Shown here: positions 24,489 to 54,608 of the stretch, piece by piece
How the letters are laid out: every line of letters starts with the position of its first letter
Position numbering within the stretch: position 1 is the first letter of the stretch
DNA from: Porticoccaceae bacterium
GTDB lineage: Bacteria; Pseudomonadota; Gammaproteobacteria; Pseudomonadales; Porticoccaceae
Direction of reading: 5' to 3'
Length of the DNA: 64,000 nt
NCBI GenBank assembly: GCA_029212965.1
Contig: JARGOV010000002.1
Location: 1,638 to 65,637, forward strand
The notes under the pieces: generated by a model
Told to the model about the DNA's origin: nothing
The model's input: the letters and a program-made list of their open reading frames with translations, nothing else
Database searches by the model: none
Position numbers and translations under genes: made by a program

Positions 24489-25556
24489 CTAAAAGGATCT
24501 TTCTTCTAACCACTTAGCGACTTGGGGCCAGAGCCGAAATACAGCATTACCACCAGCTATTAAACTGACGTGACCGCCTTTGAGGACAATTTCAGACTTA
24601 TCGTCACTGCCTATCAACTGTATCAAAGCTTCGGATGCAGCGGTGGGCACGATGTGATCGTGAAGTGCTGCAATGTGTAAAAAGGGCGCAACAATATTTC
24701 CCAAGTTGGCATTTTTGCCCTTAATTTCCATCTGCCCTTTATAGACCTTGTTGTCTTGTAAAAAATCTTGAAAGAGTTGCCGAGCAGCTTCACCGGCAAT
24801 TGGCACTTGATCTGCTGTCCAGCGCTCAAAGCGATAGTGTGCTTCAAGAAATTTGTCATCGCCTGCATTGTCGAGCAGTTGCATTCGCCCGGCAGTTTTT
24901 TGCAAGGGCCGCAAGGCTTGCAGCATGGTGTCGACCATGCCGCCGGGTATGTTGCCCAGTTGTGTGACAATTTGGTCAATATCAAAGGTTTCATTATCGG
25001 CCCAACTCTTATACAAGGGCATGCCTTCAGTGTTGACTGGGGTAGCAATGTCGACCAAATTTTTGATATTTTTTTCCGGGTGAAGGGCTGTATAAAGAGA
25101 GGCGATTACACCACCTAGGCAGTAGCCAATTAAGGAGACTTCATCTTCTCCACAGTCATCGGCCACTTTTTCAAGACAGTCCGGAAGAAAGTCATCGACG
25201 TAGGTATCAAAACAAAAATGTTGATGCTCTTTTCTCGGTAAACCCCAGTCAATGAGATAGACATCAAAGCCTTGTGCCACCAAGTATTCGACGAAGCTTT
25301 GTCCGGGTGCTAGGTCTACGATGTAATAGCGGTTGATCAAAGACATGACGAGAACGATTGGCACGCGATAAATTTCATCGCAGACCGGGTGGTAGTGATA
25401 AAGCTTCATGGGGCCGCGAGAATAGATAATATCTTTTGGCGTAACGCCTAGATCGAGAGCAAGGCCGTCGAGGTGCTTTAGGCCATCAATATTCCGTGAA
25501 AGTACTTTTTTAACAGCATCCTTAATTTTATCGTCTACTTCATTTTCACTGCTCAT
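24489..25556 (-). CDS. phaC: Poly(3-hydroxyalkanoate) synthase catalytic subunit PhaC (class III/IV type)
   Basis: 355 aa, the size typical of two-subunit synthases. Cys lipase box GYCLGG, the YLIDWG block, and downstream Asp/His candidates (HDHIVP, GGHVSL). Confidence 0.85.
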   Translation of the reverse strand: MSSENEVDDKIKDAVKKVLSRNIDGLKHLDGLALDLGVTPKDIIYSRGPMKLYHYHPVCDEIYRVPIVLVMSLINRYYIVDLAPGQSFVEYLVAQGFDVYLIDWGLPRKEHQHFCFDTYVDDFLPDCLEKVADDCGEDEVSLIGYCLGGVIASLYTALHPEKNIKNLVDIATPVNTEGMPLYKSWADNETFDIDQIVTQLGNIPGGMVDTMLQALRPLQKTAGRMQLLDNAGDDKFLEAHYRFERWTADQVPIAGEAARQLFQDFLQDNKVYKGQMEIKGKNANLGNIVAPFLHIAALHDHIVPTAASEALIQLIGSDDKSEIVLKGGHVSLIAGGNAVFRLWPQVAKWLEERSF

Positions 25557-25566
25557 TTGGCCCCAC

Positions 25567-25992
25567 CTATTTGTCGTCAGTTGTGGTGTTCTTGTCTGGG
25601 CTTGCTGGTTTTGTTGGTGGCTTACGTGTTCTCCGAGGTTTTGTGGTTGACGAAGTGGGCTCTTGGCCTGTTGAGGCGAGTTGTTTTTTCAGCAAGTGTA
25701 TTTCGGCGGTAAGTGTTGAAAGTGCATCTTCAACACCGCTGAGCCTGTCCTCCACACCGAGCACATCGGCGCGGGAGGGCAAATTAAGTGCCGCCAGCTG
25801 TTGCCCCACCATTTCAGTGAACATGTTCTGGGCGTGGAGCCATTCCTGGAAATAGTGGCCTAACATTTTGCTCGACTTCTCGTCGGCCATGATGTCTGTG
25901 AGGGCGCCACTCCATTGCTTCTCTGATTTTTGAACCCACTCGCGCCACATTCTCATGGGTTCCAGGAAATGCTTGTCTTTATCTTGGCTCAT
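25567..25992 (-). CDS. Small PHA synthase subunit (PhaE/PhaR-like) with a basic Pro/Lys/Thr tail
   Basis: 141-aa ORF 10 nt upstream of phaC. The W-rich N-terminus and the LNLPSRADVLGVEDRLSGVEDAL coiled-coil segment resemble PhaE/PhaR subunits as I recall them. Tail: TKPRRTRKPPTKPASPDK. Confidence 0.55.
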   Translation of the reverse strand: MSQDKDKHFLEPMRMWREWVQKSEKQWSGALTDIMADEKSSKMLGHYFQEWLHAQNMFTEMVGQQLAALNLPSRADVLGVEDRLSGVEDALSTLTAEIHLLKKQLASTGQEPTSSTTKPRRTRKPPTKPASPDKNTTTDDK

Positions 25993-26034: not shown

Positions 26035-26442
26035 TCAGGGTTTTGGGTCTTTTGCTTTATCGCCAGGGGGTGGTTCAGGGTTTTCGGTCGCCATTTCGGC
26101 GATTTTCACGAAACGGTTGAGCGTCGCTTTATGCATGTCGAGCAAAGTGATCCAGTTGTTGAGAAATAATGAGCCGGTTTTCGTCAGGCTGTAAATTCTC
26201 CTTGCTGGTCCCTCTGAGGATGTATCCCAGAGTGATGAAATTAAACCGGTTTTTTCCATCTGTCGTAAGGTGCGATACAAGGTGCCACTGTTAAAGCCGC
26301 CGTAACCGGCCTCCTCTAATTTTTTTGCCAATTCGTAGCCGTAGCCAGACCAGTTTTTTAGTAAGGCGAGTAGGTGTGCTGTGAGCATTTCGCTGGGCAT
26401 TTTTGTTGATGGAATTTCTTTGTCTTTTGTCATATGTACCAT
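26035..26442 (-). CDS. PadR-family transcriptional regulator (PhaQ-like by context)
   Basis: Winged-helix core WSGYGYELAKKLEEAGYGGFNSGTLYRTLRQMEKTGLISS. Same strand as and upstream of phaE-phaC, divergent from the phasin-like gene. The start at 26442 or 26433 is preferred over 26481. Confidence 0.75.
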   Translation of the reverse strand: MVHMTKDKEIPSTKMPSEMLTAHLLALLKNWSGYGYELAKKLEEAGYGGFNSGTLYRTLRQMEKTGLISSLWDTSSEGPARRIYSLTKTGSLFLNNWITLLDMHKATLNRFVKIAEMATENPEPPPGDKAKDPKP

Positions 26443-26468
26443 TCGTTGATCAGATTGAAATGAGCTAG

Positions 26469-26521
26469 GTGCAATTTGCATTTATTTAATGCTTGACACT
26501 ATATGCAGTTTGCATTTAAAT
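26469..26521 (+). promoter_or_regulatory. Sigma-70-type promoter of the phasin-like gene, overlapped by paired palindromes (candidate PadR operators)
   Basis: TTGACA (26493-26498), 17-nt spacer, TTAAAT (26516-21). The palindromes are GTGCA-ATT-TGCAT (26469-81) and ATGCA-GTT-TGCAT (26503-15); the second fills the promoter spacer. Confidence 0.5.
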
Positions 26522-27265: not shown

Positions 27266-28090
27266 ATGAGTGAAAGCAATGCAAGTGATGTTATGGAGGA
27301 GCTACTCGAGCATCTAGAAGATGATGATCAAGACGGCCCTTTTGCCCATGACCCCTCTATAGAATCTACGCTGACCCCAATTTGGCGCGAAGCTATTTTT
27401 CCGGCAGAATTTGCGGCGCTGCACTGCCACCCTGTTTTTTGGGGGCGAGGTGTAGCAAGAGGCAAAGGAGAGCCCGTGTTGGTGATTCCTGGTTTCATTG
27501 CCAATGACCTCATTATGCTGCCGATGCGCCAGTGGATGAGGCGTATAGGCTATAAACCCCACGCGGCGAAAATCCATTGGAATACGAATTGTCCTGAGAA
27601 AACGGCGACTAAATTGATCCGCCAAATTGAAGGAATTTACCGTAAGAGTGGAAAAAAAGTGATCTTGGTGGGCCACAGTCTGGGAGGCATGCTGGCGAAA
27701 ACCATTGTACAAAAAATTCCGGAATTGATTAACCGGGTGATCACCGTGGGCTCACCTTTTCGAGATATTGTTGAAGCCCATCCCGCCGTGGTTGGGGTTT
27801 GGGACTATCTGAAAATTGGACAGGGCAAATTGGTGGGCCGAGATTTAGGGGCATCCTGTGGCACCGGCTATTGTATGTGTGATTTTGTGCAAAACATGAT
27901 TGCACCACGCGAGGTTGATGTGCCCCAATTTGCGATTTACTCCCGAAATGATGGCGTTGTTGGTTGGCAAAGCTGCGCTGAAATAGATGAAAGCCTCAAT
28001 ATTGAAGTCAATAAGGCGTCGCACATGGGACTCGCTTTTAATATCGGTTCTTACAAGGCCTTGGCAAAGCGAATGGCACAAGTGGTTTAG
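27266..28090 (+). CDS. Alpha/beta hydrolase (lipase/esterase-like)
   Basis: 274-aa ORF with the nucleophile elbow GHSLGG after VLVIPGF. The acidic N-terminus lacks a signal peptide. Confidence 0.7.
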   Translation: MSESNASDVMEELLEHLEDDDQDGPFAHDPSIESTLTPIWREAIFPAEFAALHCHPVFWGRGVARGKGEPVLVIPGFIANDLIMLPMRQWMRRIGYKPHAAKIHWNTNCPEKTATKLIRQIEGIYRKSGKKVILVGHSLGGMLAKTIVQKIPELINRVITVGSPFRDIVEAHPAVVGVWDYLKIGQGKLVGRDLGASCGTGYCMCDFVQNMIAPREVDVPQFAIYSRNDGVVGWQSCAEIDESLNIEVNKASHMGLAFNIGSYKALAKRMAQVV

Positions 28091-46337: not shown

Positions 46338-47744
46338 CTAGACACTATAGTACATGTCAAATTCAACGGGGTGAGTCGTCATGTTGAGTTTTTCGACTTC
46401 CTCCTGCTTCAGAGCGATGAAAGCATCGATAACGTCGTTATCCATGACGCCGCCAGTCGTGAGGAACTCGCGGTCATTGTCTAGGGCTTCCAGCGCTTGC
46501 TCCAGTGAAGAGGCAACGGTTGGAATAGCGGCTGCTTCTTCAGGGGGCAGGTCATAAAGATCCTTGTCGGCGGGGTCGCCAGGATGGATCTTGTTTTTGA
46601 TCCCATCGAGACCGGCCATCAACATGGCAGTAAAGGCCAGGTAGGGGTTTGCTGTTGGGTCAGGGAAGCGAACTTCAATGCGACGGGCTTTGGGGTTTGG
46701 CACGTGGGGAATGCGGATGGAAGCAGAGCGGTTGCGCGCAGAGTAAGCGAGCATAACGGGTGCTTCAAAGCCGGGTACCAGGCGCTTGTAGGAGTTAGTT
46801 GAAGCGTTGGCAAAGGCGTTAATGGCCCGTGCGTGCTTGATGATGCCGCCAATGTAGAACAGCGCCGTTTCAGACATGCCCGCGTAGACGTCACCGGTGA
46901 AGATGTTGTTGCCATCCTTAGACAATGATTGGTGGCAGTGCATACCAGAGCCGTTGTCACCAACTAATGGCTTGGGCATAAAAGTGGCTGTTTTGCCATA
47001 GGCGTGAGCGACATTGTGTACGCAGTATTTAAAGGTCTGAATTTCATCAGCTTTTTGTGTCAGTGTGGCGGGGCCAACACCAATTTCACATTGGCCGGCA
47101 GTGCCTACTTCATGGTGATGGACTTCAACTTCGAGGCCCATCTGCGTCATTGCTCCACACATGGCAGCACGCAGGTCGTGCAGAGAATCGACGGGAGGCA
47201 CGGGGAAGTAACCGCCTTTAACGCCGGGACGGTGACCCATGTTGCCATCGGGAAAGTCGTGCTCGGTGGCCCAGGCAGCTTCTTCAGAGGCAATTTTGTA
47301 GAATGCACCACTCATGTTGGCGCCCCATTTTACGTCGTCGAAAACGAAAAACTCGGGCTCTGGGCCAAACAGTACAGTATCGGCAATGCCGGTAGAGCGC
47401 ATGTAATCCTGAGCACGGTCAGCGATGGAGCGTGGATCGCGGCTGTAACCCTGCAAGGTCGCTGGCTCAAGGATACCGCAGCGTAAGATGACAGTTTCTT
47501 CATCGGTAAAGGGGTCTAGCACGGACGTGCTGTCATCGGGCATCAAAATCATGTCCGAATCGTTAATGCCTTTCCAGCCAGCAATAGACGAACCGTCGAA
47601 CATCTTGCCTTCATCAAAGAAGTTCTCATCGACCTCCGTTGAGGGGATGGTGACGTGTTGCTCTTTGCCTTGAGTGTCAGTGAAACGCAGATCTACCCAG
47701 CCGGCTTCACTTTCTTTGATGAGATTTAACGTTTTTTCAGACAT
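46338..47744 (-). CDS. glnA: Glutamine synthetase, type I
   Basis: 468-aa GSI with an adenylylation-site context ([10 protein letters not shown]). Confidence 0.95.
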
Positions 47745-47908
47745 TGATGTCCTCCAGATCTAGATCAGTGTGGTTCTCTTTCACTCACTTCATGTATATA
47801 GACAGGAAAGAGGGCGAATGAGCGTGGAACAAAGTAATGGCAGAATTGTTGGAATGCCATAGTTTCTTTAGCTAGTGTTATTGCGATAAGTCCGCAAGCT
47901 CTAAATTA

Positions 47909-47924
47909 TGCAAAAGTTGCGCCA
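47909..47924 (-). promoter_or_regulatory. Sigma-54 (-24/-12) promoter of glnA
   Basis: The minus strand reads TGGCGC-AACTT-TTGCA, with correct GG-N10-GC spacing and one mismatch to TGGCAC-N5-TTGCA. It lies about 165 nt upstream of the ATG. Confidence 0.7.
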
Positions 47925-48319
47925 CTATCCATATGGTGTGCGGGGATAGCTGTGCAAGGTTTTTTGGTCAAATTGAGAGCGCGAGTTGTCCAAGTTGGTG
48001 CGCAGTATAACCCACAAGCACCAAAAGAGAGCGCTTAAAAACAGGGGGGGTGGTCGCTAGACCCTTTCTGAATATTGATGATAGTGCGGATGGTATTAAT
48101 TGCGATCACTTGAGGGGTGCGTAAGTCGCCACTGAGGAAACCCCTGAATCATCATAATGAATAACAGTTGTTGCATTTGAGGTGGCGTGGCGAATTACAT
48201 CTCTATTTCGATGGCTAAGGATTGTGAGTGTAAATGTCGTGTGTATGATAGGTGCATGAAATAAAGCGTTTGCGATGAATTGCCTGGCAGTAGCAATTAG
48301 TGGAATTCAGAGGTGATCT

Positions 48320-49498
48320 ATGGCTGTAGAATCAAAAGCATCTTCAGGTAAAACTTTATTACCTAAAATATTGCCCACTTGGCTACCTGGAGCAGCGCTC
48401 ATTAATGAGGTCTTTGATTCTCCAGAGGGGACTCCGCGGCCGACAGTCTCACTGCGTTCTGCACTTTTGGTTGGTGCTGACGAGGCACTGCTTGTTGGTC
48501 TGGGTTTGGCCTCGCGGATACGTTTTCCAACCCCTGGCTTTCGTCAGCGTTCGGCCAAGGAAATGGAAGATGCCCTTGAGTATTTTCAAGCAAGTGGTTG
48601 GCTGGATGACCCACGGACTTACCATCAAAAACCTCCCGCTCTCGAAAAGGTGAGTTTCAAAAATTCATCATCTGGGGGCACTAGTTTCGAGCATATGACG
48701 TTTGAAAGTGGCTATGTGCCGCGAATGGGTGAAGCTGGTCGGGCACGCTGGCTCGGTTATGAGAGCAATCATACCAGTCATTGCTGGGTGCTTCGCCATG
48801 CAGGCCCGCCCCGACCTTGGATGATACACATCCATGGCTACCGCATGGGGACACCATACCTGGATTTTAAGGCTTTTAGCACTCAATATATCCACCAAAC
48901 TAAAGGCTTTAATGTTCTCCATTATGTTATTCCCTTGCATGGGCCAAGAAAGATAGGCCCAACCAGTGGTGACGGTTTGTTGTCACCTGGTTATGTCAAT
49001 GCAATACATGCCGAAGCCCAAGCGATGTTTGAATTGCGGCGGATTATTGACTGGTTGCGTCGAGATGGTGCTGAGCAAATAGGTGTTCATGGTATCTCAC
49101 TGGGTGGTTTTACAACGGCTCTGCTGGCGACTCTCGAAGGTAATCTTTCCTGTGTTATTGCTGGCATACCTGCAGTCGAGTTAGTCAAAGCAGCACGTAG
49201 ATTGGGGCGGCGCAACCTGCTGTATTTCTTTGATAACTTAAATATGCCTTGGGATGAAATTGAAAAAATGGCGCAGGTAATATCGCCAACAGCAATGAAG
49301 GTTAAAGTCCCGAAAAAACGGCGTTTTATTTATGCCGGTGTTCTCGACCGCTTGGTTCATCCGGCAGAGCCGCTGGGCTTGTGGGAGCACTGGGATCGTC
49401 CAGCCATAGAATGGTACCAGGGTAATCACATGACATTTGCTCGCGATAAAAATGTTCGCACATTCATTGATAACGCCCTCGATGCATCATTTACTTAA
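48320..49498 (+). CDS. Alpha/beta hydrolase (serine hydrolase, ABHD18-like by recollection)
   Basis: 392-aa ORF with the nucleophile elbow HGISLGG and candidate Asp (GVLDRLV) and His (QGNHMTF). RBS AGAGGTGA is upstream. Confidence 0.7.
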   Translation: MAVESKASSGKTLLPKILPTWLPGAALINEVFDSPEGTPRPTVSLRSALLVGADEALLVGLGLASRIRFPTPGFRQRSAKEMEDALEYFQASGWLDDPRTYHQKPPALEKVSFKNSSSGGTSFEHMTFESGYVPRMGEAGRARWLGYESNHTSHCWVLRHAGPPRPWMIHIHGYRMGTPYLDFKAFSTQYIHQTKGFNVLHYVIPLHGPRKIGPTSGDGLLSPGYVNAIHAEAQAMFELRRIIDWLRRDGAEQIGVHGISLGGFTTALLATLEGNLSCVIAGIPAVELVKAARRLGRRNLLYFFDNLNMPWDEIEKMAQVISPTAMKVKVPKKRRFIYAGVLDRLVHPAEPLGLWEHWDRPAIEWYQGNHMTFARDKNVRTFIDNALDASFT

Positions 49499-49666
49499 AG
49501 TGCCGGGTATTGTCCGATACGCCACGAATGGCTTGCAGGTTTAACATCATAACTGTGAGGAATTTGTATCATGCCTAATGTTTATTATATAAACCTAATT
49601 CGGGTGCGCTGAGCTGACTAGTGCAAGCGCGAAGTATTAGCTTCTTATGGACAATAGGTGGAAATA

Positions 49667-52600
49667 ATGACGGAAAAGGACAGGCCCACTGGTGGTTTTG
49701 AAATTTTAGGTAGTACGTCTCGGCTAGCCGCGGCATTAAAAAATGCATCAGTTTTGGCGCGCTTTGGACGACTCGAGCCGCGCAGGGGTACGCTCTATTC
49801 TGTTCCTCACGAGAGTCCTGTTTATCGCTTGCGTTGTTATGATGTGAAAAATTCTCGGAAAGCTTGTGTGCCCATCATTCTCGTGCCGCCATTAATGATG
49901 AGTGCCGATGTTTTTGACGTTTCAAAAAAAATCAGCGCCGTAGATTATTTGAACGAACAAGGTTTTTCTGTTTGGTTAGTTGATTTTGGTGAGCCTGCTG
50001 ATCAGGAGGGTGGGCTGCATCGAGATATGAGCGACCATGTGGTTGCGGTGAATGATGCTATAGATTTTGTCTATGCTCAGCAGCGTAAGCCAGTGCATTT
50101 GGCGGGATATTGCCAGGGTGGTATTTTCTGCTATCTTGCGGTGGCGTACCGAAAGTCTAAAAACGTAGGCTCGATTGTTTCTTTTGCCGCTCCGGTCAAT
50201 CTTTACAAAAACTTTCTACCTGGGGTGTCTGATGAATTGACCCTCAAGGTTCTAGAGACGATTGGTGAAGCTGTCCCTACAAGTATTTTGCCCTCTTCTA
50301 TTCCAGGCTGGGCGAGCAAAAATCTATTTAGAATGCTGGCCCCAGTCAAACAGCTTCAATCGTGGCTTTCTTTGCTTAAAATGCTCGACGACAAAGATGC
50401 GATACTTAAGGGGGAGGATCAAAGGTCGTTTATGTCTGATGGTTTTGTCGCCTGGCCAGGCCCTGCCATGCTTGAATTTATGCGACAAATGCTGATGGGC
50501 AACCGCATGGTTTCAGGGGGCTGTGTGATTGAAGGGCGAACAGTTTCACTGACAGATATTACCTGCCCAATGCTAGCTGTCATCGGTGGTAATGATTCTA
50601 TAGCCCGTCCTCGTTCGGTTCGCGGTATCGTCGAGGCAGCACCTAACTCAGAGCGTTACCAGCTGTACTTGCCTCAAGCTGGACATCTCGGTGTCTTAGT
50701 TGGCGGGAGTGCGATGAAAAATACTTGGTCTACGGTGAACCATTGGTTGAGTTGGCGGGATGGTAACGCTGATAAACCGGAACGGATTAGCCTACTCGAT
50801 GAGGTGGGTAGCGAAGACAATGCAAGTGCTTCGGAGGAGGGTAATTTAGCGACAGCACTAACCAAGACAATGTTTGGTATGAGCAAGAGCCTTTTGGGTA
50901 CAGCGGGTGATTTACTCGGAAGCACTAAAACATCTCTGCAGACCATGAGCGATAATTTTAGTTCGCAGCTCAGCCATTTGACACGACTACAAAAACTCGA
51001 CTCTGATAGTAAAGTCGGTTTCGCTTTGTCATTGGAAGAGCAAGCAAGAAAATCACCTGACGATACGTATTTTCTCTATGCTGAAAGAGCGCATACCTAT
51101 GCTAATTCTAATCAGCGAGTCGACAATATTGTTCGTGGCTTAATTTCAATTGGGGTTCGTCGAGGCGATCATGTTGGTGTACTTATGCATGCGCGGCCTT
51201 CGGCGTTGGCAACAAATTTGGCGGTTAACCGCTTGGGGGCAGTTGCAGTCCAATTGCGCGACAGGTCCCAGCTCGCCACCGAATTAAAACTTGCTGAAGT
51301 GCAGTACCTTATAGCCGACCCTGAAAATGCACAGGCCGGGGTGACAACCTTTAATGGCCAGACCTATATCCTCGGAGGCTTTGGACGCTCTCGTCGTGAA
51401 TTACCGGAGAGTGTGATTGACATGGAGAAAATTGATCCCTCGCGAGTCGCTTTGCCAGACTGGTATCAACCGTCACCGGGTAAAGCCGATGAAGTGGCAT
51501 TCATTTCCTTTAGTCGCCTAGGGTCTGAAACACATTGCGACAAAATCACTCACCGTCAATGGGCTTTGTATTCTCTGGGTACGGCTTCTGCTACGAGAAT
51601 GGTAAAGGGCGATACGGTTTACTGCTGGACGCCTCTTTATGATCCCACCGGAATGTTAATTGCCGTTAGCGCCTCGTTAGTGGCTGGCGCTCGAATTTGT
51701 CTGGCACGGCAATTTGACACAAATACCTTTTGGCATGAAGTGAGAAGCTATGGTGCGAATATTGTTTTCTATTCTGGCGGTATGTTGCGTGAGTTAGTGG
51801 ATGCTCCCAAACATAAATTGGAGCGTGGTAACAGTATCCGTTTGTTTGCCGGTACCGGTATGCCAGAGGCTTTGAGTCAGCGAGTGGCAGAGCGTTTTGG
51901 TGATGCATCAATAATGGAAATTTACCTGTCTACTCGCCACCATGCCTATTTGGCGAATCTTAAAAATAATAAATCAGGTGCTGTTTTCCAACAACTGCCA
52001 GGTAGTAACGACATTGCTCTAGTTCATTGGGATTACCATACAAATCTACCTTTTTATGATACGGCAGGCTATTTGTGCCCTACCCCGGTTGGAGCGGTAG
52101 GTATGCTACTGGTTAAGGCCGATAATGGAATCAGTTATCGAGATAATACGTATATTTCAGACGTTTTTGAAAAGGGTGATGGTTGGCAAATTTCCGGTGA
52201 CTTGTTCTTGCTAGATAACGATGGGGATTACCACTTTGTTGATCGAGCCAGTAATTTGATCTTGACTAAGGATGATGCAATACCGACGCCGCCTATCGAG
52301 ACTGCGATTAGCACAATAGATGGTATCAGCGTCGCAACTGCTTATGGTGTAACCATAGAAGGTTGCGATTTTCAGGTTCCCGTCGCGTCGGTTGTTCTTA
52401 AAGATAAATTTAAGCTCGTCGCGCTAGATTTAACCACAGCATTGACTGAACAGCTTGATAATAAGAGCTTGCCGCTCGTTGTGATAGTCGCAAATAGTTT
52501 GCCGATGACGCCTAGCTATCAAGTGCAAAAACAAATATTAGCTGATACTGGAATCCCTCAAGGGGGACTCAAAAGGGGGCAGGCATTTTGGTTTAATAAC

Positions 52601-52915
52601 AAATCGGCAAAATATGAATCTCTTACTCAGGCATCATTGTCACGACTCATTCGCGATCTCATTGGCTTGGCCGCTACGGAGTCTGCCACCGCTCGAGCGG
52701 CAACAAAGGGTAGTGCTCTTGAAAAAAAGAGAGTGCCTAAAAAAACGAAAGCTCGTAAGAAGAAAGTCCATACGAAAACGGCCAAAAAAAGAGACCTTTC
52801 TCCGAATATAGTCAAGAAAGAAACTGAACTTAATGGCGGCATGTCGGCGAGTGATATGACTGACGGGGCATCGAGCCTAATTGAAACCACTGGCCAAGAT
52901 GCTCACTTACATTGA
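49667..52915 (+). CDS. Fusion protein: PhaC-like Cys-Asp-His alpha/beta domain + linker + adenylate-forming (FadD/FATP)-like domain + lysine-rich tail
   Basis: The N-terminal ~370 aa parallel the PhaC in this window (QGFSVWLVDFG; GYCQGG with Cys at 50111-13; NDS Asp at 50594-96; AGHLG His at 50684-86). The C-terminal ~500 aa show acyl-CoA synthetase-like blocks (ISGDLFLLDNDGDYHFVDR). The tail is KKRVPKKTKARKKKVHTKTAKKR. The ATG at 49667 follows the SD AGGTGGA. Confidence 0.7.
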   Translation: MTEKDRPTGGFEILGSTSRLAAALKNASVLARFGRLEPRRGTLYSVPHESPVYRLRCYDVKNSRKACVPIILVPPLMMSADVFDVSKKISAVDYLNEQGFSVWLVDFGEPADQEGGLHRDMSDHVVAVNDAIDFVYAQQRKPVHLAGYCQGGIFCYLAVAYRKSKNVGSIVSFAAPVNLYKNFLPGVSDELTLKVLETIGEAVPTSILPSSIPGWASKNLFRMLAPVKQLQSWLSLLKMLDDKDAILKGEDQRSFMSDGFVAWPGPAMLEFMRQMLMGNRMVSGGCVIEGRTVSLTDITCPMLAVIGGNDSIARPRSVRGIVEAAPNSERYQLYLPQAGHLGVLVGGSAMKNTWSTVNHWLSWRDGNADKPERISLLDEVGSEDNASASEEGNLATALTKTMFGMSKSLLGTAGDLLGSTKTSLQTMSDNFSSQLSHLTRLQKLDSDSKVGFALSLEEQARKSPDDTYFLYAERAHTYANSNQRVDNIVRGLISIGVRRGDHVGVLMHARPSALATNLAVNRLGAVAVQLRDRSQLATELKLAEVQYLIADPENAQAGVTTFNGQTYILGGFGRSRRELPESVIDMEKIDPSRVALPDWYQPSPGKADEVAFISFSRLGSETHCDKITHRQWALYSLGTASATRMVKGDTVYCWTPLYDPTGMLIAVSASLVAGARICLARQFDTNTFWHEVRSYGANIVFYSGGMLRELVDAPKHKLERGNSIRLFAGTGMPEALSQRVAERFGDASIMEIYLSTRHHAYLANLKNNKSGAVFQQLPGSNDIALVHWDYHTNLPFYDTAGYLCPTPVGAVGMLLVKADNGISYRDNTYISDVFEKGDGWQISGDLFLLDNDGDYHFVDRASNLILTKDDAIPTPPIETAISTIDGISVATAYGVTIEGCDFQVPVASVVLKDKFKLVALDLTTALTEQLDNKSLPLVVIVANSLPMTPSYQVQKQILADTGIPQGGLKRGQAFWFNNKSAKYESLTQASLSRLIRDLIGLAATESATARAATKGSALEKKRVPKKTKARKKKVHTKTAKKRDLSPNIVKKETELNGGMSASDMTDGASSLIETTGQDAHLH

Positions 52916-53072
52916 GCATCTTGGGAAGCAGGATGAAAGTACACTGCCTCTACGAGTAGTAAAGTGCTTCAGGTGGCAGATAAGTACAGTATTTCTATTT
53001 ATGGGTCGGCCACATAGGCTGGCTTCTTACTTATAGATGGTTTTTGTACTCCAGTACTCAATCAGAAGGCTT

Positions 53073-53103
53073 AGGCATGTATCTGGCGCGCAGATACATG
53101 CCT
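53073..53103. other. Perfect 13-bp stem-loop immediately upstream of thiI
   Basis: AGGCATGTATCTG-GCGCG-CAGATACATGCCT, followed directly by TATAAT (53104-53109) and, 15 nt later, a T6 run. Confidence 0.6.
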
Positions 53104-53147
53104 TATAATGCGCGGTCTTTTTTGTCTTTGGTCTCTGGGTCTTACGC

Positions 53148-54608
53148 ATGCATTTTGTCATTAAATTATTTCCCGAAATTATTATTAAAAGCCCACCTGT
53201 CCGTAAGCGTTTCATTAAACAGTTGCGGGATAACTTACGACGCATGCTCAAGGGACGTTATGCCGGGGTTCAGGTACTTAGCCAGTGGGACAAAATTGAA
53301 GTCGTCGCCGAGGGCGCCGATGCCGAGCGCGATGCGTTTATTAGCCGCTTGCTGGCCAATACCCCGGGAGTGGCCAATTTTTCTCATGTCAGCACTCATC
53401 CTTTGGGCTCTTATGATGAAATGGCTGATTTACTGTGGCCCATGTACGGGGAAAGCCTGAAGGACAGAAGTTTTTGTCTACGCGTAAAGCGCAGCGGTAA
53501 GCATGAATTTAACTCGTCAGAATTTGAGCGCGAGGTTGGCGGGCGCCTGTTTCAGCGTTCTGGTGCAAGTAAGGTACAGCTCAAGGGAGCTGATGTTGAG
53601 ATACGCCTCGATATTCGCGGTCAGGTTCTTTCTGTGCTTGAAAGCACAGTTCAGGGTTTGGGGGGCTTCCCTCTGGGCACACAGGATTCTGTGTTGTCAC
53701 TCATATCCGGCGGGTTCGACTCTACCGTGGCCAGTTATATGGCCATCAAACGGGGTTTGCGTACCCACTATTGTTTTTTCAATCTCGGTGGCCGCGCCCA
53801 CGAGTTGGGCGTTAAAGAGGTCGCCTGGTATTTGTGGGATAAATACGGCGCATCTCATCGGGTGAAGTTTATTACTGTGCCTTTCGAAGACGTTGTAGCA
53901 GAGATTCTCACCAAGGTTGATAACTCCCAAATGGGCGTTGTGCTCAAACGGATGATGTTGAGAGCAGCAACAGAAGTGGCGCAAAGCTGGAAGGTCGAGG
54001 CCATGGTGACGGGCGAGGCTGTGGCTCAAGTCTCCAGCCAGACGCTGACCAACTTGTCAGTGATTGACAGTGTTACCGATATGCTGACGTTACGGCCATT
54101 GGTGACGATGGATAAAAACGCCATTATTGATGTCGCCCGTGCCATTGGCACTGAAGAGTTCGCCGCTAATATGCCGGAATATTGCGGGGTTATTTCGGTC
54201 AAGCCAACCACCCGAGCCAAGCCAGAGAGAATCGAATACGAAGAATCAAAATTTGATTTTGCTGTGCTCGATGCCGCGATTGCCGGGCGCCGTGAAGAAA
54301 ACATCGATCAAATGATGGATGACTGGATCGACCTGCCCAGCGTTGAAGTTTTTTCCGCGCCTCAACCAGGCGCGGTTATTCTCGATATTCGCCATCCCGA
54401 TGAGGTGGAGCGCAAACCCCTCGACGCCGGTGCCACAGATATTGAAAGGGTGCCCTTTTATGCACTGCAAAATAGCTACAAAAAGCTCGACCCCAGCCAG
54501 CACTATTTGCTTTATTGCGATAAGGGCGTGATGAGCCAGTTGCACGCTGAGCTGTTGAAAGATCAAGGCTTTGACAATTTGGCGGTTTATCGCCCGGGTA
54601 CGCCTTAA
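53148..54608 (+). CDS. thiI: tRNA 4-thiouridine(8) synthase ThiI (with C-terminal rhodanese domain)
   Basis: Starts MHFVIKLFPEIIIKS. PP-loop SGGFDS, and a C-terminal rhodanese domain with CDKG. Confidence 0.9.
   Translation: MHFVIKLFPEIIIKSPPVRKRFIKQLRDNLRRMLKGRYAGVQVLSQWDKIEVVAEGADAERDAFISRLLANTPGVANFSHVSTHPLGSYDEMADLLWPMYGESLKDRSFCLRVKRSGKHEFNSSEFEREVGGRLFQRSGASKVQLKGADVEIRLDIRGQVLSVLESTVQGLGGFPLGTQDSVLSLISGGFDSTVASYMAIKRGLRTHYCFFNLGGRAHELGVKEVAWYLWDKYGASHRVKFITVPFEDVVAEILTKVDNSQMGVVLKRMMLRAATEVAQSWKVEAMVTGEAVAQVSSQTLTNLSVIDSVTDMLTLRPLVTMDKNAIIDVARAIGTEEFAANMPEYCGVISVKPTTRAKPERIEYEESKFDFAVLDAAIAGRREENIDQMMDDWIDLPSVEVFSAPQPGAVILDIRHPDEVERKPLDAGATDIERVPFYALQNSYKKLDPSQHYLLYCDKGVMSQLHAELLKDQGFDNLAVYRPGTP

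Follow-up and report, generated by a model that had tools for sequence, protein, structure and literature searches.

The glnA and thiI genes ordinarily lie side by side, and the question raised by the present locus is what two genes lodged between them might do. In a metagenome-assembled genome (MAG) of a marine Porticoccaceae bacterium, the glnA-thiI junction is filled by two same-strand ORFs encoding 392 and 1082-1085 amino acids. The original prediction, made from the 64,000-nucleotide stretch analyzed here (the window), took them for a self-contained accessory unit of storage-lipid or polyester synthesis and remodelling, in which a serine hydrolase accompanies a fusion of a PhaC-like domain with an acyl-activating domain.

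The glnA-thiI junction and its insert

Both predicted ORFs exist, at 48320-49498 and 49658-52915. The features of the junction are:

46338-47744, minus strand: glnA, left flank
47745-48034, minus strand: glnA control region, outside the insert and forming its left boundary
47909-47924, minus strand: sigma-54 promoter of glnA, sequence match TGGCGCAACTTTTGCA
up to about 48025: NtrC-like repeats in the glnA control region
48035-48319, plus strand: insert-specific upstream spacer, without homology to empty junctions
48222-48249, plus strand: promoter-like site (hexamers) ahead of the esterase
48320-49498, plus strand: esterase gene, 392 amino acids
49667-52915, plus strand: fusion gene, 1082 amino acids from ATG
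52916-53147, plus strand: insert-specific downstream spacer; empty junctions are homologous again only from the thiI start codon onward
53003-53025, plus strand: terminator-like hairpin
53148-54608, plus strand: thiI, right flank

The 290 nucleotides of the glnA control region are 72-77% identical to the glnA-proximal spacer of four empty junctions (L016, L010, L008, and L020), and the insert measures about 5.1 kb (about 48035-53147). A GAGGTG ribosome-binding site precedes the ATG of the esterase. The mechanical ORF of the fusion opens with a GTG at 49658 and encodes 1085 residues. The ATG at 49667, which has an AGGTGG ribosome-binding site ahead of it and is the start annotated at NCBI, is the likelier start. 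Residue numbers of the fusion refer to the 1085-residue frame unless stated.

The junction was surveyed in 80 metagenome loci that were anchored on ThiI and included upstream sequence. As predicted, nearly every one of them has glnA and thiI directly adjacent and divergently transcribed, with about 420 bp in between. Eight close relatives whose ThiI is 88-95% identical (L008, L010-L014, L016, and L020) have an empty junction, as does every more distant relative that still has glnA upstream of thiI; therefore the esterase-fusion unit is accessory, as had been supposed. Filled junctions were found in the window, L001, L002, L004, and L005/L015, and on the thiI tree they are interleaved with empty ones. 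A relic of a 460-residue esterase remains in the L005 junction.

The insert had also been described as AT-rich. Its lower G+C content is real but modest: the two ORFs have 0.486 and 0.468, respectively, compared to 0.505 +/- 0.035 for the other genes of the window (0.5-1.1 SD low), and their GC3 is 0.42 compared to 0.52 +/- 0.06 (about 1.7 SD low), but their codon-usage distance lies inside the normal range. The composition is thus only mildly atypical and gives no more than weak evidence of a foreign origin. No integrase, transposase, att site, or tRNA target was found in the glnA-thiI interval, and the only flank repeat at the insert is a 17/19-nucleotide A-rich match.

A divergent member of the Rv1683 family

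The fusion matches the NCBIfam model NF005898 (PRK07868) end to end, with 879.6 bits and E = 2e-264 over model positions 8-985 of 994, and the earlier comparison with mycobacterial Rv1683/BCG1721 was well founded. The score is 45 bits under the curated equivalog cutoff of 925 bits, and no more than 39-41% of residues are identical to those of actinobacterial-type members. By sequence, the fusion appears to represent a divergent clade of this family, which is already catalogued as PRK07868 in NCBIfam, rather than an equivalog. It is 100% identical to a Porticoccaceae MAG protein annotated as "AMP-binding protein". In mycobacteria the orthologue is a protein of lipid inclusions, recovered in several inclusion proteomes of actinobacteria, and S150 of BCG1721 is required for TAG lipolysis on overexpression (PMC10699116, PMC11980559). 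TAG levels also rose when BCG1721 was overexpressed (PMC10699116). Knowledge of the association with lipid inclusions and of the effect on TAG turnover is limited to mycobacteria and rhodococci (PMC10699116, PMC11980559). As anticipated, we found no characterized proteobacterial member of the family in the literature.

A PhaC-like alpha/beta hydrolase, a disordered linker, an ANL (FATP-like) fold, and a histone-H1-like basic tail follow one another along a single chain, all on the plus strand:

49775-50782, plus strand: PhaC-like alpha/beta-hydrolase domain, residues about 40-375
50111-50113 (TGC), 50594-50596, and 50684-50686, plus strand: hydrolase triad C152, D313, and H343, respectively
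50783-51022, plus strand: disordered or helical low-complexity linker, residues 376-455
51023-52657, plus strand: ANL (FATP/FadD6-like) two-lobe fold, complete, without canonical adenylation residues
51509-51535, plus strand: P-loop position, F618-S-R-L-G-S-E-T-H626 (canonical T-S-G-T-T-G-x-P-K; 1 of 9 positions kept)
52520-52522, plus strand: position of the A10 catalytic Lys, Q955
52658-52912, plus strand: histone-H1-like Lys-rich disordered tail, residues 1001-1085

The hydrolase domain and its nucleophile

The resemblance to the PhaC of the window, originally aligned by eye, was recovered by BLASTP (26% identity over 308 amino acids, E = 5e-28), with GYCQGG placed over GYCLGG. Sequence matches of the domain in the PDB were PHA synthases only, and the triad is in register with theirs (9knj, 5hz2). 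The class III PhaC model TIGR01836 was matched at E = 1e-33, with 113-117 bits against a curated cutoff of 365.3. Weak matches to PHB-depolymerase families were also seen (PF06850 and TIGR01849; E = 5e-3 and 8e-4, respectively).

The proposed Asp and His partners of the Cys box, D313 and H343, are invariant in 120 of 120 homologs, and the nucleophile is always Ser or Cys. Of the predicted thiol chemistry, the Cys itself is present here but it is not a family trait. Most members, including Rv1683 (catalytic S150), use Ser, and Cys is a recurrent variant found in 12 of 12 members of clade A, 5 of 25 of clade B, and 2 of 83 of clade C. The nucleophile has switched at least 4-5 times inside the gammaproteobacterial clades and once outside them. 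These repeated switches suggest that either residue can act as the nucleophile. The dN/dS of the domain is 0.03-0.06.

The ANL domain, linker, and tail

The Pfam families expected for this part of the fusion were matched. PF00501 gave E = 6e-29 and 101.4 bits (cutoff 29.9), and PF13193 gave 24.9 bits (cutoff 24.5). FATP2 is the best sequence match of residues 460-990 (E = 7e-44), and the model of the domain aligned by Foldseek with PchD, 4CL, and luciferase at a target TM of about 0.8. In the AF2 model the C-lobe adopts the adenylate-forming, not the thioester, conformation.

The fold is complete, but the label "acyl-activating" has become doubtful. The P-loop departs from the A3 consensus tested, (T/S)(S/G)G(T/S)(T/E)GxPK. 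The T-E of A5 is T759-R760, and Glu at this position is present in none of 37 gammaproteobacterial members as compared to 82 of 83 others. The A10 residue is Gln in all 37 gammaproteobacterial members and Arg in all 83 others, and is never Lys. On the other hand, the A7 motif S846-G847-D848 with its ribose-binding Asp is retained, as is the Arg of A8, and many other positions have stayed invariantly Arg, Gly, or Trp. At the Gly of A8 the fusion has Asp. The mapping of motifs agreed against two references, FATP2 and feruloyl-CoA synthetase (8wev). The dN/dS of 0.04-0.065, similar to that of the hydrolase domain, indicates strong purifying selection. Because the P-loop, A5 Glu, and A10 Lys are lost, the domain most likely no longer makes an acyl-adenylate; it is probably a pseudo-ligase domain still held by purifying selection, and the fusion is probably not the fat-activating enzyme implied by the annotation. 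The strong conservation also fits retained catalysis, as unusual ANL enzymes could use other residues.

The low-complexity linker foreseen between the two domains has an AF2 pLDDT below 50 for residues 384-428 (1082-residue numbering) and a raised dN/dS of 0.11-0.16. The basic tail, likewise foreseen, carries 18 Lys and Arg in 85 residues, of which 14 fall within a 30-residue core (1021-1050), and its dN/dS is 0.3-0.36. Tails of 70-158 residues, rich in Lys, Pro, Ala, and Thr, are found in both gammaproteobacterial clades, whereas other members of the family have essentially none (median 6 residues).

The upstream esterase

The first gene was read from its HGISLGG motif as a separate serine hydrolase, and the catalytic residues agree. 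S260, D343, and H370 are invariant across 65 homologs and lie at:

49097-49099, plus strand: S260, in HGISLGG
49346-49348, plus strand: D343
49427-49429, plus strand: H370

Pfam matches were weak and under threshold for PF09752 (ABHD18; 20.5 bits, cutoff 21) and PF00326 (Peptidase_S9; 20.3 bits, cutoff 22.6), and a longer paralog in L001 passes both cutoffs (25.3 and 24.9 bits, respectively). The AF2 model has a pLDDT of 88.5, and its top Foldseek matches are CE7 acetyl esterases and S9 catalytic domains. From its sequence and model, the protein is a Ser-Asp-His alpha/beta hydrolase, a carboxylesterase of an uncharacterized ABHD18-like family. Its sole NCBIfam match is to the RcgR-type "quorum lactone hydrolases" (E = 2e-9, far under cutoff). 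Inspection by eye showed no evident signal peptide in the esterase or the fusion. The esterase gene is linked to a fusion gene in L001-L004, L006-L007, L088, L089, and L091. More distant homologs adjoin a WS/DGAT-family gene, a GPAT-type acyltransferase gene, or a carboxylesterase gene; in L094, no HHxxxDG catalytic motif is present in the WS/DGAT-family neighbour.

Sister clusters

Next to the esterase-fusion pair, the sister loci L003/L091, L088, and L089 encode a PF05597/TIGR01837 phasin and a TetR regulator. The phasin has a tail of AKKP repeats, with a Pfam HC2 histone-like match in L003 and L088, and scores 77-80 bits on TIGR01837, under the cutoff of 94.7. L088 also encodes an esterase of the hormone-sensitive-lipase family, and its fusion, in the same phasin/TetR context, is of the Ser type. 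Luciferase-like monooxygenases are encoded nearby in L091. A Cys-type member of clade C (P0079 contig) has a MaoC-type hydratase and a thiolase as neighbours. The larger cluster to which the unit is homologous runs: membrane-anchored esterase, esterase, fusion A, esterase, fusion B, PhaF-type phasin, TetR. The 64-kb window itself contains no gene for a phasin, a TetR regulator, or a WS/DGAT enzyme.

Proposed function and alternatives

We lean toward the view that the esterase and the fusion are an acyl-transfer and esterase pair of the storage-inclusion surface, equipped with a non-adenylating ANL module. Its substrates would be ester-linked carbon reserves, and its place of action the surface of either a neutral-lipid droplet or a PHA granule, a location suggested by the homologous clusters in other genomes and by the mycobacterial data. 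The esterase (gene 1) would act as a Ser-Asp-His carboxylesterase. C152, H343, and D313 of the fusion would bind an acyl group, supplied by acyl-CoA or by stored esters, as a covalent thioester of the enzyme, and the acyl group would then pass to water, CoA, or a hydroxyl acceptor. The ANL domain may serve as an acyl-chain/CoA-binding or docking module, and the Lys-rich tail may tether the fusion to the nucleoid or another polyanionic surface, like the tail of PhaF. Rather than the self-contained unit first envisaged, the two genes are the relocated left part of the larger cluster with its extra esterases, second fusion paralog, PhaF-type phasin, and TetR, now being lost piecemeal from the glnA-thiI junction among close Porticoccaceae.

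The annotation of Rv1683 implies a canonical bifunctional enzyme, an N-terminal lipase with a C-terminal ATP-dependent long-chain acyl-CoA synthetase, which would immediately activate the fatty acids that the lipase and the partner esterase set free. Matches to PF00501 and PF13193 above the Pfam cutoffs, best matches to FATP2, PRK08279, and FadD6, a complete fold modelled in the adenylate-forming conformation, strong purifying selection, the retained A7 SGD and A8 Arg, and the TAG increase with BCG1721 (PMC10699116) speak for it. We nevertheless consider it unlikely, in view of the P-loop with 1 of 9 positions kept, the replacement of A5 Glu by Arg and A10 Lys by Gln in 37 of 37 gammaproteobacterial members, and a family in which no member has Lys at A10; the Rv1683 literature cited here contains no in-vitro acyl-CoA synthetase activity, which is "thought to" exist. 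The fusion might instead be a new type of PHA synthase, its Cys-Asp-His domain polymerizing hydroxyacyl-CoA bound or delivered by the ANL-like domain, with the esterase as depolymerase (PhaZ analogue) and the tail in place of PhaF. GYCQGG fits the G-x-C-x-G-G box of PhaC, the triad lines up with those of solved PhaCs, PHA synthases are the nearest characterized families, the sister cluster mirrors phaC1-phaZ-phaC2-phaD/phaFI down to the PhaF-type phasin, and the hydratase and thiolase beside the Cys-type clade C member would suit such a pathway. This reading is rather improbable given the TIGR01836 score of 113-117 bits against 365, the Ser of most family members (L088 with its phasin/TetR context among them), the action of the mycobacterial orthologue on TAG droplets, the D-S found where PhaC has D-H, and an ANL domain that resembles long-chain FATP/FadD6 enzymes. 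In PhaC, moreover, Cys-to-Ser mutants show that Ser supports polymerization poorly.

An ATP-independent thiolytic mobilization carries a similarly small chance. Here the site of the ANL domain that once formed thioesters would bind CoA, and this CoA would resolve the Cys or Ser acyl-enzyme formed from a stored ester, giving acyl-CoA at no cost in ATP. The loss of only the adenylation-specific A3, A5, and A10 residues, with the fold and many Arg, Gly, and Trp positions under strong selection, is consistent with this, as are the weak matches of the hydrolase domain to PhaZ-type families, and it would fit both TAG effects of BCG1721, accumulation and S150-dependent lipolysis. A precedent is given in a review's account of PHB granules with PhaZa1, which yielded 3HB-CoA when CoA was supplied (Uchino 2007, reviewed in PMC7147478). 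The reading is purely inferential; the C-lobe is modelled in the adenylate rather than the thioester conformation, the A8 Gly position is Asp, and the long disordered linker gives no sign of two active sites facing each other. Least probable of all is a non-storage hydrolase pair that would act on exogenous esters or lactones, or on compounds derived from hydrocarbons, in a marine lineage associated with hydrocarbons. The sub-cutoff lactone-hydrolase match and CE7-like fold of the esterase, the monooxygenases of L091, and the dispensability of the unit among close relatives agree with it. Against it, neither protein has a signal peptide evident by eye, phasin, TetR, and lipase genes adjoin the pair in sister clusters, lipid inclusions are the established location of the mycobacterial orthologue, and the hydrolase domain is nearest to PHA synthases among characterized families.

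Comparison with known systems

The cluster phaC1-phaZ-phaC2-phaD/phaFI of Pseudomonas putida (PMC7590123) is paralleled in L091/L003 by fusion-esterase-fusion, TetR, and a divergent PF05597 phasin. The likeness concerns how the genes are ordered and which types of domain they encode, and is not orthology; no source names the sister-cluster TetR PhaD, and the copy in the window differs in being without phasin and TetR genes. The basic tail of the fusion itself resembles the DNA-binding tail of PhaF.

Class III (and class I) PhaC shares with the fusion the alpha/beta fold, the G-x-C-x-G-G box, and the Cys-Asp-His triad. The fusion differs in scoring 117 bits, far under the family cutoff of 365, in its "D-S" for the "D-H" dipeptide, in being joined to an ANL domain, in a family that mostly uses Ser, and in its neighbours, which are the esterase, glnA, and thiI, with no PhaE partner nearby. 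PhaZa1, an alpha/beta enzyme with a Cys nucleophile located on the storage inclusion, offers a possible mechanistic analogy; the PF06850 and TIGR01849 matches of the fusion are marginal and do not make it a family member. With FATP/ACSVL and FadD6-type very-long-chain acyl-CoA synthetases the fusion has the complete two-lobe fold in common, but it has other residues at the P-loop and in place of the A5 Glu and the A10 Lys.

The closest relative is Rv1683/BCG1721, which shares the full-length architecture of N-terminal PhaC-like hydrolase, linker, and ANL domain. Its S150 aligns with C152 of the fusion, the Asp and His of the triad do not vary within the family, and a non-canonical P-loop and an A10 residue other than Lys are family-wide. 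Unlike Rv1683, the fusion has Cys as nucleophile and additionally lacks the A5 Glu and the A10 Arg, and the gammaproteobacterial members add a histone-H1-like tail of 70-160 residues. Of the gammaproteobacterial loci sampled, all but two also have a partner esterase gene, joined by phasin and TetR genes in the sister loci, whereas in L090 and the P0079 contig, the loci sampled from clade C, neither an esterase gene nor a phasin/TetR cluster adjoins the fusion. What is new to this family here is the switching between Cys and Ser, an ANL domain that lacks the adenylation residues yet is constrained, and the origin in a larger phasin/TetR cluster.

Gene organization at the glnA-thiI junction

The original prediction placed two ORFs on one strand between glnA and thiI, and both were located there. 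In protein comparisons, the window matched a Porticoccaceae (Cellvibrionales) MAG with 100% identity. The features of the junction are:

46338-47744, minus strand, glnA (flank, preceded by ntrC-ntrB)
47909-47924, minus strand, sigma-54 promoter of glnA, TGGCGCAACTTTTGCA
about 47934-48025, NtrC-like GGTGC...GCACC repeats, ending where homology to empty junctions stops
48320-49498, plus strand, esterase ORF, 392 aa
49658-52915, plus strand, fusion ORF with its mechanical start, 1085 aa from GTG
53148-54608, plus strand, thiI (flank, with typA on the same side)

For the fusion gene, ATG 49667 (1082 aa) is a likelier start than GTG 49658; an AGGTGG ribosome-binding site precedes it, and the NCBI annotation begins the gene there. 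GTG 49658 itself falls within this ribosome-binding site (window 49658-49669). Residue numbers of the fusion protein follow the 1085-aa frame. The sigma-54 promoter and the NtrC-like repeats point towards glnA, and no convincing sigma-54 site facing the esterase or the module was found when the window junction was tested for nitrogen control. The esterase start lies only ~300 bp from the nitrogen-responsive enhancer of glnA.

Family and hydrolase domain of the fusion protein

The fusion protein matched the NCBIfam model NF005898 (PRK07868, 'acyl-CoA synthetase') end to end (positions 8-985 of 994) with 879.6 bits, just under the equivalog cutoff of 925 bits. We take its family to be that of Rv1683/BCG1721, because the architecture is shared and C152 of the fusion aligns with S150 of BCG1721. 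The S150A mutation of BCG1721 abolishes the additional TAG lipolysis caused by overexpression (PMC10699116). The family contains more than 1000 proteins at 90% clustering and ~150 representatives at 50% clustering, many of which are fragments.

Residues ~40-375 form a PhaC-like α/β hydrolase, which matches TIGR01836 (class III PhaC) with E = 1e-33, far below the cutoff. PHA synthases were the only solved structures that sequence search detected, and the Cys, Asp and His of these enzymes align with C152, D313 and H343. The top 50 Foldseek hits of the full-length model were ANL matches only, and this N-terminal domain was assigned by the sequence-based PDB and NCBIfam matches. D313 and H343 are invariant (120/120 homologs). 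The nucleophile is Cys in 12/12 members of clade A (the window's gammaproteobacterial clade), 5/25 of clade B (its gammaproteobacterial sister) and 2/83 of clade C (the remaining family). Ser occupies this position in most of the family, including every one of the 45 long representatives from 50% clustering. A neighbour-joining tree places at least 4-5 switches of the nucleophile inside the gammaproteobacterial clades and one elsewhere.

The fusion shares 26% identity over 308 aa with the window's own PhaC (E = 5e-28). That PhaC scored 331 bits against 365 with TIGR01836, just under the class III cutoff. No PhaE gene lies beside it, and its downstream neighbour is an N-acetyltransferase. The surrounding features are:

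24489-25556, minus strand, PhaC
25567-25992, minus strand, 141-aa ORF upstream of PhaC, weak PF05597 phasin match (E = 0.009)
26035-26481, minus strand, PadR regulator upstream of PhaC
27266-28090, plus strand, LCAT/PGAP1-like lipase-type hydrolase, following these

ANL domain and tail

Residues ~456-1000 have FATP2 as their best match (E = 7e-44). The ANL domain in the AlphaFold model has a complete two-lobe fold (pLDDT >90, pTM 0.78), with Foldseek target TM of ~0.8 to PchD, 4CL, luciferase and MatB; structures in the adenylate conformation fit best. The adenylation motifs were mapped and checked against FATP2 and feruloyl-CoA synthetase 8wev.

Table. ANL adenylation motifs in the fusion protein
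A3 (P-loop): canonical T-S-G-T-T-G-x-P-K; fusion F618-S-R-L-G-S-E-T-H626
A5: canonical T-E; fusion T759-R760
A7: canonical S-G-D; kept in fusion
A8: canonical Arg; kept in fusion
A10: canonical Lys; fusion Q955

Position A10 is never Lys across the family: all 83 clade C members have Arg, as does Rv1683, and all 37 gammaproteobacterial members have Gln. A canonical P-loop is likewise absent from the whole family, whereas 82/83 clade C members retain the A5 Glu as compared to 0/37 gammaproteobacterial ones. Against relatives, dN/dS was 0.04-0.065 for the ANL domain, 0.03-0.06 for the hydrolase, 0.11-0.16 for the linker and 0.3-0.36 for the tail. The low ANL value, close to that of the hydrolase domain, shows that the ANL domain is not in decay; given the absence of adenylation residues, it is functional, very probably without adenylation. 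We found no literature report of in vitro acyl-CoA synthetase activity or of a biochemical test of the "synthase" half of Rv1683.

A disordered stretch rich in Lys (14 K+R in 1021-1050) makes up the final 85 residues. Tails of 70-158 aa, rich in K/P/A/T and some with clear AKKP/PKKP repeats, are found in both gammaproteobacterial clades; outside these clades there is essentially none (median 6 aa). In composition, the fusion tail matches the tail with which the phasin PhaF binds DNA, which is histone-like (PMC7590123). It is firmly shown that the fusion protein belongs to the Rv1683 family as a divergent gammaproteobacterial member, and that it has a Cys nucleophile, a selected, non-canonical ANL domain and a PhaF-like tail.

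Upstream esterase

We call the upstream ORF an uncharacterised ABHD18-like serine carboxylesterase. Its model has an α/β fold (pLDDT 88.5) with invariant S260, D343 and H370, and its Pfam matches to ABHD18 and Peptidase_S9 are just under threshold. No solved structure of a relative was detectable by sequence search; in fold comparison, CE7 acetyl esterases and S9-type catalytic domains came closest (12-16% identity). Distant homologs (~45% identity) adjoin three different neighbours. In L094 (5691-8416), a myxococcotal locus, a 471-aa homolog has a stop/start overlap with a WS/DGAT-family gene (PF03007 and PF06974). This link was given less weight because the catalytic HHxxxDG motif is missing. 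A patatin-like lipase is also close to the L094 homolog. The neighbour is a GPAT-type acyltransferase in locus L095 and a type-B carboxylesterase in L096.

Variable presence of the module

Because the fusion gene as query would bias the sample to carriers, the metagenome survey was anchored on ThiI, and the upstream regions of 80 loci were classified by tblastn. Where upstream sequence was present, glnA (minus strand) immediately adjoins thiI (plus strand) in almost every locus, ~420 bp apart, which bears out the neighbour order given in the original prediction. The junction is empty, i.e. without the module, in the close relatives L008, L010-L014, L016 and L020 (ThiI 88-95%, GlnA 93-100% identical). 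Only the window, L001 (Ca. Reddybacter), L002, L004 and L005/L015 have a filled junction. Loci of the two kinds intermingle on a neighbour-joining tree of thiI. Thus, the survey of relatives called for by that prediction firmly shows that the module is variably present at the glnA-thiI junction and does not occupy every relative's junction.

The 290 nt beside glnA (47745-48034) are homologous to the spacer at empty junctions, and homology on the right restarts only at the thiI start codon; therefore ~5.1 kb (48035-53147) stands in place of ~140 bp. A precise deletion or insertion scar was not definable, as only thiI coding sequence aligns with empty junctions on the right. No relics of either module gene were found at empty junctions. 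A mobile island with its own mobility genes was rejected, as the search turned up neither an integrase or transposase nor a tRNA, and no flanking repeat that was convincing. One direct repeat of 19 nt, AAAAGAGAGCGCTTAAAAA (17/19 identical), occurs at 48023-48041, exactly at the left insert edge, and at 52725-52743, within the tail-coding part of the fusion gene; this A-rich repeat is probably a chance match. The AT-richness noticed earlier proved real but mild: GC is 0.486 (esterase) and 0.468 (fusion) vs. 0.505 ± 0.035, and GC3 is 0.42 vs. 0.52 ± 0.06, whereas codon-usage distance is normal.

The L001 and L004 inserts hold a third gene, a divergent 460-aa membrane-anchored esterase paralog. 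L005 has kept the fusion and lost both esterase genes, and an N-terminal remnant of the 460-aa esterase survives there:

about 1051-1182 of L005 (587-718 of the 465-1700 gap), minus strand, residues 18-62, 49% identity, E = 4e-5

Most simply, the ancestor had a three-gene insert and piecemeal loss is under way; alternatively, the module may have been re-gained by recombination across conserved flanks.

Gene clusters in other genomes

The esterase and fusion genes are linked in most gammaproteobacterial loci sampled: at glnA-thiI (window, L001, L002 and L004), after a thiCOSGEFD operon (L006/L007 and L088) and within a larger cluster (L089 and L091/L092/L003). The fusion lacks an adjoining esterase gene in L005/L015 and L093. 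The solitary L093 fusion indicates that the pairing is not absolute; nevertheless, fusion and esterase are firmly shown to be a conserved unit. In L093 (8001-11204), the clade A member P0011 (71% identical) stands alone 3' of tamA-tamB. The units of both paralogous clades adjoin thiamine-related genes: clade A at thiI (window 53148-54608), and clade B directly 3' of the thiC-thiO-thiS-thiG-thiE-thiF-thiD operon in two different genomes (L006/L007 1-6287; L088 1-5433). No esterase or phasin neighbour was seen at the clade C fusion loci sampled.

Table. Gene order of the large cluster in L089 (arrows give direction)
Left half: <-carbonic anhydrase, <-465-aa esterase, ->401-aa esterase, ->fusion B
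Right half: <-PF05597 phasin with AKKP tail, ->TetR (PF13972), <-PP2C-kinase, <-MFS

L091 has the same arrangement with a tandem duplicate (esterase-fusion A) inserted upstream. Because the gene order of the glnA-thiI insert (<-460, ->394, ->fusion A) matches the left part of this cluster and L091 fusion A falls in the window's clade, the insert is a relocated copy of that part. Ser-type (L088) and Cys-type (L089, L091) fusions share this context. The phasins scored 77-80 bits with TIGR01837 (PhaF/PhaI type; cutoff 94.7), and the L088 phasin additionally matches histone-H1-like models. L088 also holds a hormone-sensitive-lipase-family esterase. When the cluster TetR was considered as PhaD, homolog search returned generic TetR/AcrR names and NCBIfam no specific match. 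Within the 64-kb window, no phasin, TetR or WS/DGAT gene was found. A fused PP2C phosphatase-Ser/Thr kinase gene and an MFS transporter are kept beside the phasin/TetR side in three genomes (L003 10843-13755; L089 12058-15339; L091 20367-23300), and this neighbour may hint at control by phosphorylation. A scan of genome contigs gave three loci only, with no cultured host among them.

Possible function

We lean, by a modest degree, towards acyl transfer and ester turnover on the surface of storage inclusions, in which the ANL-like domain would bind acyl/CoA or provide docking, and the tail would act as a tether. Turnover could run in either direction, build-up or mobilisation. The storage ester may be either neutral lipid or PHA: the former is favoured by the FATP-like domain, by the orthologue in mycobacteria and by neighbours of the lipase, WS/DGAT-family and GPAT kinds, and the latter by the PF05597 phasin, the PhaC-like box and the pha-like order of the cluster.

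A genuine ATP-dependent synthetase joined to a lipase would suit the complete ANL fold, and the "synthase" annotation of the Rv1683 family says as much. That annotation is questioned by the lack of the A10 Lys and the family-wide non-canonical P-loop, and the further losses in the gammaproteobacterial branch, where the ANL domain is yet strongly selected, add to the doubt; we regard this reading as unlikely. A new PHA synthase, as the Cys nucleophile might suggest and the class III model score does not, appears somewhat less probable still. We give similarly low credence to the idea that the gammaproteobacterial proteins are ATP-independent thiolytic lipases or depolymerases, in which CoA would resolve a Cys/Ser acyl-enzyme formed from stored ester and the ANL domain, having dropped the adenylation half-reaction and kept acyl/CoA handling, would present CoA. 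If true, storage esters would yield acyl-CoA directly without ATP, an energy-saving mobilisation route; the ANL domain would be a repurposed pseudo-ligase, which would bear on the mechanism of Rv1683 at mycobacterial lipid droplets. A role unrelated to storage seems very improbable; Rv1683/BCG1721 is among the conserved core proteins of actinobacterial lipid inclusions (PMC10699116, PMC11980559).

Comparison with known systems

As the family has an existing catalogue entry and its mycobacterial members are partly characterised, it is not a new kind. In the literature we found neither a characterised proteobacterial member nor a report of a PhaC-ANL fusion. As far as we found, the Cys nucleophile with recurrent Ser/Cys switching, the further losses of adenylation motifs, the H1-like tail, the esterase partner, the phasin/TetR super-cluster and the polymorphic glnA-thiI insert are undescribed. 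The Ser/Cys switching in a PhaC-like fold is a natural experiment that could shed light on what distinguishes an ester hydrolase from a thioester-forming acyltransferase or polymerase. Close Porticoccaceae with filled and empty junctions would allow a direct comparison if strains in culture or complete genomes became available. With its divergent phasin, the arrangement fusion-esterase-fusion-TetR resembles phaC1-phaZ-phaC2-phaD/phaFI of P. putida (PMC7590123), an organisational analogy that does not imply orthology. Together, the PhaF-like tail and the phasin/TetR cluster tie PHA-granule biology to a family so far known from neutral-lipid droplets.
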